Part shown: positions 8,437 through 49,283 of the stretch, in pieces
Layout: the number at the start of each line of letters is the position of its first letter
Position numbering within the stretch: the first letter of the stretch is position 1
Source: Minisyncoccota bacterium
GTDB taxonomy: Bacteria; Patescibacteriota; Minisyncoccia; 2-02-FULL-40-12; GWA2-44-9
Reading direction: 5' to 3'
Assembly: GCA_030583765.1 (NCBI GenBank)
Contig: CP129474.1
Coordinates: forward strand, 521,348-585,347
DNA: 64,000 nt
Notes under the pieces: generated by a model
Seen by the model: the letters and a program-made list of their open reading frames with translations, nothing else
What the model was told of the DNA's origin: nothing
Database searches by the model: none
Program-made: the position numbers and the translations under genes

Positions 8437-8722
8437 CCCTAGTACCCAAAGATGATTACCTACCAGACAAGCGAAACCCTCAGCGGCTGACAGACCGTGT
8501 TCGCACGTCTGAAAAAGCCGCCTCAAGGCGGTTTCTGTGTCTCTAGGAGCATCACGCGGGTCGCTTCGCCCTAAGGGGCGAGACGAACCTCGCTCCATGA
8601 TCCTTTGGTATCATGAGCGGGCAGTACGTTGACAACGTGGAACGGGAGCTGAACGAAAGTTCAGCTTTGTATTGTTCGCTTTATAAGAGACCTAGGACCT
8701 CGAGTCCTAGGTGGTACTTTGT

Positions 8723-11815
<3,093 letters not shown>

Positions 11816-11873
11816 GGTCTCTTATAAAACAAACAACACAAAACCGTTCCACGTAGCGTAAAAACGCTAGAAA

Positions 11874-11985
11874 CTTGGCAGCTATACTGTAGGTGTCCCA
11901 CCTGATCCCATTCCGAACTCAGAAGTGAAATCCTGCAAGGCCCATGATAGTCGGACTCTTCCGGCGAAAGTAGGTAGCTGCCAGA
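11874..11985 (+). rRNA. rrf: 5S ribosomal RNA
   Basis: CTTGGCAGC...CCCACCTGATCCCATTCCGAACTCAGAAGTGAAA...GCTGCCAG; canonical 5S helices. Confidence 0.8.
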
Positions 11986-12024
11986 TTTCTGGCGTTTTTA
12001 TGTTGGTGAGGTATACTTGCAGAT

Positions 12025-45542: not shown

Positions 45543-47324
45543 ATGCCAGACCATGTTGCCGAAATTAAATCACGACTCGACATTGTCGACGTGATTACTG
45601 GATATATCCAGATTCAGCGCTCTGGCGTCAATTTCAAAGCGCGTTGTCCGTTTCACAACGAAAAGACCCCATCATTTTATATTTCTCCCGAGCGCCAATC
45701 ATGGCACTGCTTCGGGTGTTCAAAAGGGGGCGACATGTTTTCGTTTGTGCAGGATATCGAGGGAGTGGAATTTCCCGAAGCGCTCCGCATGCTTGCGCAG
45801 AAGGCGGGCGTTACGCTCGAGTATACACAGCATAAATTACATTCCGAGAAGACGCGCCTCTTAGATATTCACGAGCGCGCCACAAAGTTCTTTGAAGCAC
45901 AACTCTGGAATGGAAATGCGGGCGCTCGTGCGCTTGCATATCTCCGTGACCGCGGGCTTACTGACGATACCATCCGTACGTTTCGCATCGGGTACGCGCC
46001 AAACGACTGGCATGCACTCTCGACCTATCTCACTTCATGTGGGTATACGCGTCAGGAGATTATCGCAAGTGGCGTGGCCGTACCAAAAGACGGTCGCTCC
46101 TATGATCGTTTTCGGGGGCGTATTATGTTCCCGATTGCTGATGTGAATGGTCGAGTTATTGCATTTACTGCACGCGTGCTCCCAGGCACTGATGACGTCG
46201 GTGCAAAATACATCAATACGCCGCAGACGGCTCTCTATGACAAGGGCTCCGTGCTCTTTGGCCTTGATAAGGCGCGCCTGGCTATCCGTCACGAAGGTTC
46301 ATGTGTGCTGGTAGAGGGGAACATGGACGTGATCATGTCGCACCAAGCTGGTGCTATGAACACGGTTGCAACTTCCGGCACTGCGCTGACTCCACAGCAA
46401 CTCAAGCTCATTCACCGCTACACGCAGACTATCGATTTCTGCTTCGATGCAGATCAGGCGGGCGAGCAGGCTTTACGTCGTGGTATTGGACTTGCTCTCG
46501 CGCAAGAGTTCACTGTCCGCGCCCTTCGTTTGAGTGGCGAGCACATGAAAGACCCCGCGGATTACGTGCGGGAACATGGCAATGAAGCGTGGCTGGCTAT
46601 CGCAAAGGATGCGCAGCCGATCATGGATTTCTACATTGCCCGTGCAGAGGCGACGTTACCGCTCGGAAGCGCTGACGGTAAAAAACAAGCACTCTCTTTG
46701 CTCGGCCCGATGATTCGTCGTATGACGAGTCGCGTGGAGCAAGATCACTGGACGAAGCGCGTTGCGCAACTGGTTCGTAGTGATGAAGCTGCGGTGCGCG
46801 CTGACCTTGCCACTATTCGAGATGATCTTGAAGAGTATGCGCGCCCTGAGGTCCCCACTGTTCCTGCGGCAGCTCCGGCAACGCTTCGCGGCAGTGCGCT
46901 TGATGATGCACTACTCACGTTTGCCTTTGTGCATCCTGCGGTGGTGGCGGCCGAGGAACCGATGCTTACGAAAGCAACCATTGATCCTGTACTGCGCGAC
47001 GCGCTCCTTGCTATCGCGCGTAGTACACCGGAATCACTGCGTGCGCCGGAAGCATTTACGCTCATTGATCCAGAGTCTCGTTTCTCTCTCGATGCGCTGT
47101 ACATGCGCGCGCATGAGGTGTGGAGTGGCGTGAGTGAACGGGAGCTCTCATTCTTCTTCCGCACTATGCTTGCTCGTGCACATACCGAACTTGTCCGATC
47201 TCAGCTTCGCGATCTTGAATCCGCAATCCGTGATGCCGAGGCGCGCAAGGACGTCCAGGAGGTAACACTTCTCGCCGGCCGTGCCGCAACGCTCACGCAG
47301 CAACTTGCTTTGTTTTCCGTTTAA
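45543..47324 (+). CDS. dnaG: DNA primase
   Basis: CHC2 zinc finger ([11 protein letters not shown]...WHCFGC) and a Toprim domain. Confidence 0.9.
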
Positions 47325-47332
47325 TTTTTTGT

Positions 47333-48559
47333 ATGCCAACACCAAAAAAGAAAAAGAAGGTTACCGTGTCGCGCCGTGCGTCCGCGAAGTCTCGCGCACG
47401 AAAACCCGCGCGTGGAGTATCTGCTCGTCGCGTGGTGAAGAAAAAGAAGAGCGTCGCACGCACTCCTCGTAAGAAGCCAGAGGTCATGAGCGAGAGCGCA
47501 ACACTTGCGCTCATTGAGCGCGGCAAGACGCGTGGCTTTGTCACGCAAGCAGAGATTTTGAGCGCCTTCCCCACTATTGAACAAGACATTATTGGACTTG
47601 AAGCGCTCTATGAGCGACTTGAGGGAGAAAATATCACCGTCATTGAATCGGTAAGTGTCTTTGAAGAAACGGCAGCAAAAGAATACGAACAGAAAAAGAA
47701 GATTGAAGATGAGTTTAGTGAAGGCTCATCTTCTGATTCAGTGCAGATGTATCTACGCGAGATTGGCAAATACCCACTTCTTAAGGGCGAGGAAGAGATA
47801 GAGCTTGCCAAGCGCATTGAACGTAACGATGAATCGGCACGCCAGAAGCTCGCACTCTCAAACCTTCGTCTCGTCGTTTCTATCGCAAAGAAATACGTGG
47901 GCCGCTCCGCAAACCTCTCACTTCTAGACCTCATTCAAGAAGGGAACATCGGCCTCTTTAAAGCGGTGGAGAAATTTGATTTCCGCAAAGGGTTTAAATT
48001 CTCTACGTATGCGACATGGTGGATCCGCCAAGCGATCACCCGCGCGCTTGCAGATCAGGCGCGTACTATTCGTATCCCTGTGCACATGGTGGAAACCATC
48101 AACAAATATCAGCAGGTGGTGCGCCGACTGGTGCAAGAACTTGGCCGTGATCCACTGCCAGAAGAAGTTGCTGCAGAAATGGACATGGACGTAGATAAAG
48201 TGCGTCACATTATCAAAATCTCCCAAGACACCATCTCACTGGAAACGCCTGTGGGTGATGGTAAAGATGAAGATAGCCACTTAGAGGACTTCATCCCAGA
48301 TGAGAATGCGCTCGGGCCAGATGTATCTGCGGGGCGTAAGATCCTCAAGAAGTATATTGATGAGATTATCGGGGATCTCTCACAGCGTGAGCAAAAGATT
48401 CTCGACATGCGTTTTGGTCTCACGGACGGCGTCACCCACACCTTGGAAGAGGTGGGGAAGGTGTTTAATGTGACGCGTGAACGCATTCGTCAGATTGAAG
48501 CAAAGGCACTGGAAAAGATCCGTCAGCATGAGAATGTTGAGCGTCTGAAGGGGTACTAG
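47333..48559 (+). CDS. rpoD: RNA polymerase sigma factor RpoD with K/R-rich N-terminal extension
   Basis: Regions 1.2-4 are present (e.g. ...[13 protein letters not shown]...). The first about 60 aa are a lysine/arginine-rich low-complexity stretch. Confidence 0.9.
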
Positions 48560-48641
48560 GTTGCTTTTTGGGGCTATCCTCAATATACTTGGTTGCGATA
48601 GGGTTCTCGGGCATAGGGTTTTGTGGTATACTACAGTGTAT

Positions 48642-48974
48642 ATGCCAGATGTGAGAACCTATCGCGATCGAGCTGAATATCTCAAAAAAGCCGTTGCCGC
48701 TCGAAGGCGCAAGCTTCGAGCGCTCATCGTGGCATATAGGGGTGGCAAGTGCGTGTTTTGTGGGTATAAGCGATCGATCTGGGCGCTTGATCTTCATCAC
48801 GTAGTCGCGCACCAGAAAGAGTTCGGGCTTTCAGCTCGAGGGCTCACGCGATCTTTGGAAAAGATCAAGGCGGAAGCCGATAAATGTATTCTGGTGTGTG
48901 CAAATTGTCACCGAGAAATACACGCAAAGGTAAGGAAACTTCCAAGCACTTATACAAAAAATATTCCGCGGTAG
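48642..48974 (+). CDS. HNH endonuclease family protein
   Basis: 110 aa with CVFCGY...LDLHHV...CANCHREIH (Cys/His zinc and HNH motif). An extended -10 TGGTATACT lies upstream. The stop overlaps the tRNA-Asn 5' end. Confidence 0.6.
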   Translation: MPDVRTYRDRAEYLKKAVAARRRKLRALIVAYRGGKCVFCGYKRSIWALDLHHVVAHQKEFGLSARGLTRSLEKIKAEADKCILVCANCHREIHAKVRKLPSTYTKNIPR

Positions 48975-49244
48975 CTCAATGGTAGAGCGTCTCGCTGTGA
49001 GATAAACGCAGCTTTGCGTCGAAAGGCGCACTGAAACTTTCTGGGATAACGGTGAAGCCCCTTCGTTTTTTTACGAGAGGTAATACCGTGGGAACCCCGC
49101 CTTGGCGGGGGCGCCGTAGAGACTAGATACCAGAACGCCTGTGTCGCATGCGCGATATGGCGAAGATATAGTCCACGCCGGTATGAAAATACCGGAATTC
49201 GTGTAACGAGAGGGTTGTAGGTTCGAGTCCTACCCGCGGAGCCA
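48965..49244 (+). tRNA. tRNA-Asn (anticodon GUU) interrupted by a 205-nt group I intron (exons 48965-48998 and 49204-49244)
   Basis: Exon 1 is TCCGCGG-TA-GCTC-AATGGTA-GAGC-G-TCTCG-CTGT. Exon 2 is TAA-CGAGA-GGGTT-GTAGG-TTCGAGT-CCTAC-CCGCGGA-G-CCA. The spliced loop is CTGTTAA, giving anticodon GUU. Confidence 0.7.
48999..49203 (+). ncRNA. Group I self-splicing intron within tRNA-Asn anticodon loop
   Basis: P1 forms between exon GCUGU and intron GCAGC (49008-12), with a U.G pair at the splice site. The intron ends in G. P7 elements AGACTAG (about 49118-24) and AAGATATAGTCC (49163-74) are conserved. Confidence 0.7.
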
Positions 49245-49248
49245 AATC

Positions 49249-49283
49249 AAAACACCGCATCTTCTGCGGTGTTTTGATTTAAT
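49249..49283 (+). terminator. Intrinsic terminator after tRNA-Asn
   Basis: AAAACACCGCA-TCTTC-TGCGGTGTTTT followed by GATTTAAT. Confidence 0.5.

Follow-up and report, generated by a model that had tools for sequence, protein, structure and literature searches.

The DNA analysed here, hereafter the window, is a stretch of 64,000 nucleotides (nt) from a Minisyncoccota bacterium (assembly GCA_030583765.1, contig CP129474.1). At positions 48965-49244 it carries a tRNA-Asn(GUU) gene that consists of a 34-nt 5′ exon, a 205-nt intron and a 41-nt 3′ exon. As described below, this is very probably a real asparagine tRNA gene that is split by a compact 205-nt group I ribozyme lacking an open reading frame (ORF), and an HNH endonuclease gene lies directly upstream of it. 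The parts of the tRNA gene are as follows.

48965-48998, plus strand: tRNA-Asn 5′ exon, tRNA positions 1-35, ending in CUGU; U35 occupies position -1 relative to the 5′ splice site, and the exon equals the 5′ letters printed in upper case in the published entry for GCA_030583765.1.
48999-49203, plus strand: group I intron of 205 nt with no ORF, ending in the omega-G at 49203; it has a match to RF00028, a covariation-supported fold and published coordinates (570346-570550).
49204-49244, plus strand: tRNA-Asn 3′ exon, from U36 on, with a discriminator G and an encoded CCA end.

The intron interrupts the anticodon between positions 35 and 36 (U35/U36). When the two exons were joined in silico, ARAGORN returned a 75-nt tRNA-Asn(gtt) with a normal cloverleaf, G73 and an encoded CCA, which agrees with an earlier note, made from the sequence alone, that had described a canonical 75-nt tRNA with the anticodon loop CUGUUAA. 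That note had also placed a tRNA-Asn(GUU) gene with a 205-nt group I intron in the anticodon loop at 48965-49244, and these coordinates are exact: the boundaries equal the published annotation of an identical sequence. Letter for letter, 48965-49244 is the entry for GCA_030583765.1 (Paceibacteria, 570312-570591, intron 570346-570550) in Table S3 of Nakagawa et al. (mSystems 2026, PMC13011429). The intron-bearing tRNA-Asn is therefore correctly described but already known, and it is ordinary for the phylum. In 95 complete Patescibacteria genomes, Nakagawa et al. (also bioRxiv, July 2025) found 22 intron-containing tRNA genes, 15 of which are tRNA-Asn(GUU) with the intron at 35/36, making this tRNA the commonest intron host in Patescibacteria (PMC13011429). 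The known bacterial tRNA group I introns had earlier been widened from 4 to 21 host/site types (Williams 2020, bioRxiv), and according to Nakagawa et al. the tRNA-Asn introns at this site are the type named 'Asn.4Ug' by Williams (PMC13011429). The remark in the earlier note that an Asn host would be unusual is thus out of date.

Introns at the 35/36 site fall into two sequence types, with extra hairpins between P7 and P3′ or without them (the window type). To describe the fold of the window intron, 16 window-type introns were aligned with MAFFT (alignment A4) after an ORF inserted in the P1 loop had been cut out of 9 of the 16 sequences, and the P1-P9 structure was mapped onto the alignment by hand. 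The mapped structure includes the P3/P7 pseudoknot, P9.0 and the four tRNA stems, and comprises 72 pairs and 1140 cells. Its elements are listed below, where MFE denotes the minimum-free-energy fold of the single sequence.

48994-49012, plus strand: P1, formed by exon GCUGU plus G48999 with the internal guide CGCAGC (49007-49012), loop AGAUAAA; the U48998.G49008 wobble marks the 5′ splice site.
49015-49030, plus strand: P2 hairpin with a GAAA tetraloop; all 6 pairs (6/6) show compensatory changes, and the hairpin is in the MFE fold.
49039-49044, plus strand: P3 5′ strand, partner 49130-49135; 4/6 pairs compensatory, 100% of cells paired.
49049-49053 with 49085-49089, plus strand: P4, enclosing P5 (49060-49080); seen in the covariation alignment and the MFE fold.
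49090-49115, plus strand: P6/P6a hairpin, seen in the covariation alignment and the MFE fold.
49116-49127, plus strand: R element GUAGAGACUAGA, spanning the P7 5′ strand.
49119-49125, plus strand: P7 5′ strand G(A)GACUA with a bulged A, partner 49169-49174; 6 pairs, invariant in the 16 introns and in the MFE fold.
49130-49135, plus strand: P3 3′ strand, 4 nt (GAUA) from P7, so that there is no P7.1/P7.2.
49136-49162, plus strand: P8 hairpin, carrying CCUGUG...UAUGG; 3/4 basal pairs compensatory.
49163-49174, plus strand: S element AAGAUAUAGUCC, which includes the P7 3′ strand UAGUCC (49169-49174).
49175-49177 (ACG) with 49200-49202 (CGU), plus strand: P9.0, 3 base pairs; 2/3 compensatory.
49178-49195, plus strand: P9, enclosed by P9.0, with a GAAA loop; 6/7 pairs compensatory.

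The results show standard pairs in 93.6% of the 1140 cells, compared with 35-44% when the 3′ partners were slid by 1-3 columns. Both sides had changed in 37 of the 72 pairs, and none of 500 column shuffles reached the observed values. Besides the helices with compensatory counts above, P4 and P6a also covary, as do the acceptor, D, anticodon and T stems of the tRNA; the distal part of P5 aligns poorly among the homologues (52% paired). The MFE fold (-113.5 kcal/mol, z = -4.1) recovered P1, P2, P4-P6a, P7, P8, P9.0, P9 and the tRNA stems. Taken together, covariation and folding strongly support a P1-P9 structure with a P3/P7 pseudoknot as the predicted fold of this intron.

The individual hallmarks named in the earlier note were also found. 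It had paired exon GCUGU with the guide GCAGC to form P1 with a U.G pair at the 5′ splice site; this P1 is present, its U48998.G49008 wobble is U.G in 16 of 16 homologues, and the inner G-C pair of P1 has 5 compensatory changes. The two P7 strands it had pointed to are likewise in place, as GAGACUA (49119-49125) and UAGUCC (49169-49174), and are unchanged in the 16 window-type homologues; P7 is inferred to be the guanosine-binding helix. The terminal intron G that it had listed is G49203, the omega-G, which directly follows the covarying P9.0 and is positioned by it, and a G precedes the 3′ exon in 73 of 73 homologues. In P8, the CCUGUG...UAUGG sequence is a variant of the CCUAAG/UAUGG tetraloop-receptor motif of the homologues, as read from A4, and the GAAA loop of P2 (L2) would be expected to dock on it.

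Standard scans do not report this gene. With default settings over the whole window, ARAGORN missed the locus and called only a tRNA-Leu and a tRNA-Ser, and Rfam at the gathering cut-off was silent there, reporting only 23S, 5S, tRNA-Leu and tRNA-Ser. A local Rfam scan (421-nt search) gave a match to RF00028 (Intron_gpI) at 48989-49195, covering model positions 1-253, with 43.0 bits and an E value of 8.4e-10. The Rfam search that the earlier note had proposed as a check thus gave a group I match over the full model, with a score below the gathering threshold of 50, which is why the default scan reports nothing at the locus. The Rfam group I seed does not contain any bacterial intron (Williams 2020, bioRxiv).

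When introns were allowed, ARAGORN called the locus tRNA-Thr (tgt) i(33,205), that is, a tRNA-Thr(UGU) gene with an intron of the same length moved 2 nt upstream (33/34). With these boundaries, too, the 5′ site is preceded by a U and the intron terminates in a G (49201). However, the 5′ site would then follow a U paired with A, rather than the invariant U.G wobble, and the omega-G candidate G49201 falls inside the covarying P9.0 helix. Among 73 unique homologous pre-tRNAs, the Thr reading fits 52, the other 21 lacking the omega-G or UGU, while the Asn reading (U at -1, omega-G and the spliced loop CUGUUAA) fits all 73. The tRNA body points the same way: the spliced RNA has the U1-A72 and G73 ends of tRNA-Asn and is mostly 75-88% identical to the uninterrupted tRNA-Asn(GUU) genes of relatives (one outlier, 69%), many of which occupy the equivalent site after rpoD, compared with 67% identity to the single tRNA-Thr in the comparison set. 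Under the Thr reading, moreover, the genome would be without a tRNA-Asn. ARAGORN and tFind often miscall such tRNA-Asn genes as Thr(UGU) 33/34, and for sibling genes this documented miscall has been disproved by the sequenced spliced product (Nakagawa et al. 2026, PMC13011429). An alternative tRNA assignment had been named in the earlier note as something that would undo its claim; the Thr(UGU) assignment was examined and is rejected as exceedingly improbable, being ruled out by the U.G pair, P9.0, the 21 of 73 homologues and the Asn-like tRNA body.

Removal of the intron from tRNA-Asn would probably follow the standard group I pathway, as suggested by family membership and by the published splicing of a sibling tRNA-Asn intron. 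The precursor would fold into P1-P9 with the P3/P7 pseudoknot, as the covariation indicates. Exogenous guanosine would attack after U48998, the U of the P1 wobble; the terminal G49203, placed by P9.0, would enter the G-binding site in P7; and the freed 5′ exon would attack the 3′ splice site, so that U35 is joined to U36 and the GUU anticodon is formed. In vitro, one tRNA-Asn 35/36 intron and one tRNA-Asp intron were shown to splice precisely, and an omega-G to C mutation blocked exon ligation (PMC13011429). For the complete genome GCA_030583765.1, Table S2 of the same study counts no tRNA-Asn with tRNAscan-SE and ARAGORN and one with tFind; therefore, the gene at 48965-49244 is the sole tRNA-Asn gene of the genome, and since there is no other, splicing would have to work in vivo.

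Three points weigh against an active, intron-split tRNA-Asn gene. The 43.0-bit match is below the score at which Rfam assigns membership, both default scans are blind to the gene, and the in vitro splicing comes from a sibling of the sub-type with the extra P7-P3′ hairpin, not from the window copy. The first point and the sibling origin of the splicing results would also suit a dead tRNA-Asn whose two halves were inactivated by a degenerate, non-splicing group I relic. Against such a relic, all core helices are intact, and the compensatory changes in homologues show selection on the fold; the U.G pair, the omega-G, P7 and the cloverleaf are all perfect, and the gene is the only tRNA-Asn gene in a complete genome. 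A genuinely decayed copy looks different: the upstream tRNA-Asn copy at locus L097 has a degenerate acceptor strand. We therefore consider a dead gene very unlikely and retain the intron-split tRNA-Asn as the preferred reading.

The earlier note had taken AAGAUAUAGUCC as a motif typical of IC3 introns. This argument is weak, since the motif is the generic group I 'S' element and part of the RF00028 consensus. AAGAUAUAGUCC was not found in the tRNA-Leu IC3 intron of Nostoc PCC7120 (sequence from Table S4, PMC13011429), and the alignment of the window intron with that intron was not significant (z = 1.5). Covariance-model classification placed none of the Patescibacterial tRNA introns in IC and nearly all in IA (PMC13011429). 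The architecture of the window intron, with a compact core, P2 present and no P2.1, P5abc or P7.1/7.2, fits an IC3-like type. The P7.1/P7.2 hairpins that serve as the IA criterion are absent from the window intron, in which P7 and P3′ are just the 4 nt GAUA apart; among siblings at this insertion site, L097, L129, L151 and L166 (alignment A3) and L005 (alignment A1) have one or two P7.1/P7.2-like hairpins in that gap. When the intron was compared by blastn with 50,697 phage records, just short, non-significant matches to the S/P9 region came up.

The genes upstream of the tRNA-Asn are, in order, dnaG (45543-47324), rpoD (47333-48559) and the HNH gene. Two further features of the surroundings are listed here.

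47333-48559, plus strand: rpoD (sigma-70), the conserved upstream neighbour of tRNA-Asn.
49245-49280, plus strand: terminator-like 16-bp (base pair) hairpin right after the CCA end of the tRNA, with a U-run inside the stem; it was not called by a simple terminator consensus scan.

Among GTDB species genomes, the closest relatives of this rpoD are from Candidatus Yanofskybacteria (74%), followed by Moraniibacteria and Parcubacteria, and the host is a Patescibacterium of the class Paceibacteria. The position of tRNA-Asn directly 3′ of rpoD is conserved in Patescibacterial relatives and even in Bacillota. Of the rpoD-anchored Patescibacterial loci, 7 have an intron at this site (the window, L003, L006, L010, L036, L005 and L011) and 6 have an uninterrupted tRNA-Asn (L004, L009, L012, L013, L016 and L020).

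Elsewhere, serine recombinase genes were found on the opposite strand downstream of intron-containing tRNA-Asn genes at L083 (3001-4617), L084 (3129-4631) and L087 (3341-3976). At L083 and L084 the recombinase gene is a large one (Resolvase + Zn_ribbon_recom) that touches or overlaps the 3′ end of the tRNA; at L087 it is shorter, with a gap of about 280 nt to the tRNA. The tRNA-Asn may serve as an integration site for mobile elements. The window also holds a 23S rRNA gene (8718-11986), of 3092 nt compared with the 2925-nt model, with insertions, for example around 9041-9086, and followed by a 5S rRNA. No 16S rRNA was detected in the 8.7 kb (kilobases) upstream of the 23S gene, and no group I intron was detected in the 23S gene.

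The HNH gene next to the tRNA and the motif in front of it are located as follows.

48642-48974, plus strand: intact HNH endonuclease gene of 110 amino acids, located outside the intron and overlapping tRNA positions 1-10 by its final 10 nt, stop codon TAG included.
48624-48632, plus strand: TGGTATACT, which resembles an extended -10 element and lies 10 nt ahead of the HNH ATG; conserved in intronic and free-standing copies (alignment A1).

The HNH protein has the motifs CxxC...HH...N...CxxCHxxxH (CVFC...HH...N...CANCHREIH) and matches the PHROG HNH families with an E value of 1.4e-27. Its score with Pfam PF01844 (HNH) is 17.7 bits and thus below the cut-off of 21.4. With the HNH family as the query, an NCBIfam search gave no match and a PDB profile search gave a weak match (E = 0.0017) to the endonuclease domain of a group II intron maturase. 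More than 1300 homologues with 60-75% identity were found, and all those with a named source come from Patescibacteria, distant classes included. A simple promoter scan did not detect the TGGTATACT motif; its conservation suggests that the HNH gene may have its own promoter.

The position of the HNH gene was surveyed in 89 distinct loci that encode the family. In 60 of them the gene is inside the tRNA-Asn intron, in the P1 loop, and the 3′ end of these intronic copies also contains the internal guide: ACGCAGC falls within the codons for ...TQL.... Ten loci, the window included, have the gene immediately 5′ of a tRNA-Asn with an ORF-less intron; two have it in divergent orientation to the tRNA; and in another 2 (L100, 1299-1818, and L113, 1365-1806) it lies just downstream of an uninterrupted tRNA-Asn with a TGGTATACT-like motif in front. 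In total, the HNH gene is tied to tRNA-Asn in 74 of the 89 loci, and the other 15 are mostly at contig ends. The copies at L100 and L113 show that the endonuclease is tied to tRNA-Asn loci even without an intron. At L097 (138-1222) two tRNA-Asn genes stand in tandem. The upstream one, which is split by an intron containing an HNH gene, has a degenerate 3′ exon; the one that follows is intact, and its 239-nt intron is ORF-less. L097 is possibly an intermediate between the intronic and the free-standing arrangement. A rough neighbour-joining tree scatters the free-standing copies over about six separate positions. A partial tandem duplication would have left a decayed 5′ exon ahead of the window HNH gene; such a remnant was sought with an nhmmer profile of 37 intronic loci and is not supported, as the profile matches only the TGGTATACT...ATG segment there; L097, unlike the window, has a real second 5′ exon. 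Judged from these gene arrangements, the window HNH gene would most simply be a homing-endonuclease gene that ended up outside the intron.

What the gene now does at the locus was weighed in two ways. At somewhat less than an even chance, it is an unrelated or decaying passenger with no role there. The window protein is on a long branch of the tree and has changed 3 of 21 near-invariant family residues (K4, W72 and G96 of the family), the free-standing copy at L036 is frameshifted and has lost its last His, and the intron-bearing relatives L003, L006 and L010 have no HNH gene at all. On the other hand, the window ORF is intact and retains all 32 invariant family residues, including CxxC, HH, N and CxxCHxxxH, and its homologues are physically linked to tRNA-Asn genes in the large majority of the loci surveyed. 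Among the rpoD-anchored loci, moreover, 4 of the 7 with an intron have the HNH gene, compared with none of the 6 without one (one-sided Fisher p = 0.049). Alternatively, by analogy with known systems, the HNH gene may encode a free-standing homing endonuclease that acts in trans to mobilise its own gene, the intron or both (collaborative homing), a proposal that we regard as rather unlikely. In this reading, the HNH family would have moved repeatedly between P1-loop intronic and free-standing sites across Patescibacteria. The altered K4, W72 and G96 residues count against homing in trans, as do L100 and L113, where an HNH gene beside an intron-less tRNA-Asn fits poorly with a simple model in which the enzyme cuts the intron-less allele. 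A decaying HNH remnant and collaborative homing appear about equally likely.

The intron itself adds little, as a table already in print lists the identical gene and introns of this class have been demonstrated by experiment. That this gene is overlooked by default tRNA and Rfam scans, or wrongly labelled tRNA-Thr, affects estimates of genome completeness for Patescibacteria. The upstream HNH gene is the one point absent from Nakagawa et al. (PMC13011429), and it is a modest side lead that is possibly useful. That study counted intron-internal ORFs only and does not mention free-standing HNH copies (the term 'free-standing' is absent from its text), and such a count underestimates the endonuclease genes linked to these introns. 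The series of intronic, tandem and free-standing HNH genes could be of use in tracing how group I introns gain and lose endonuclease genes. If homing in trans were true, it would qualify the published inference that tRNA introns without endonuclease genes have limited horizontal mobility.

Compared with known systems, the window gene is closest to the published tRNA-Asn intron of GCA_030583765.1, which has the same 280-nt sequence, the same boundaries and the same reported ARAGORN miscall as Thr(UGU) 33/34, so that the RNA does not differ in any way; the in vitro tests of Nakagawa et al. (2026, PMC13011429) concern other introns, and the upstream HNH gene goes unmentioned there. The tRNA-Asn intron of the Saccharimonadia genome GCA_016700035.1, which was spliced in vitro (PMC13011429), shares with the window intron the host tRNA, the 35/36 site, P1 (CUGU / GCAG) and the R and S elements, and the two are significantly similar (68% identity over the shorter sequence, z = 5.2). 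It differs in its length of 234 nt and in an additional P7-P3′ hairpin, which is absent from the window intron.

The IC3 introns of Azoarcus tRNA-Ile (205 nt, the length of the window intron) and Nostoc/Anabaena tRNA-Leu(UAA) (249 nt) are also inserted in the anticodon loop, and they share with the window intron a minimal P1-P9 structure without P2.1, P5abc and P7.1/7.2 and with GNRA loops on P2 and P9. However, the host tRNAs differ, and so do the insertion sites, which is 34/35 in tRNA-Leu and follows a 5′ exon of 39 nt in Azoarcus, compared with 34 nt in the window. As for the HNH gene, the arrangement in the window resembles that of collaborative (trans) homing, in which ORF-less phage introns are mobilised by free-standing homing endonucleases (Hausner et al. 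2014, PMC3984707). The phage cases concern phage protein genes (PMC3984707), whereas the window comes from a cellular bacterium and the gene concerned is an essential tRNA.

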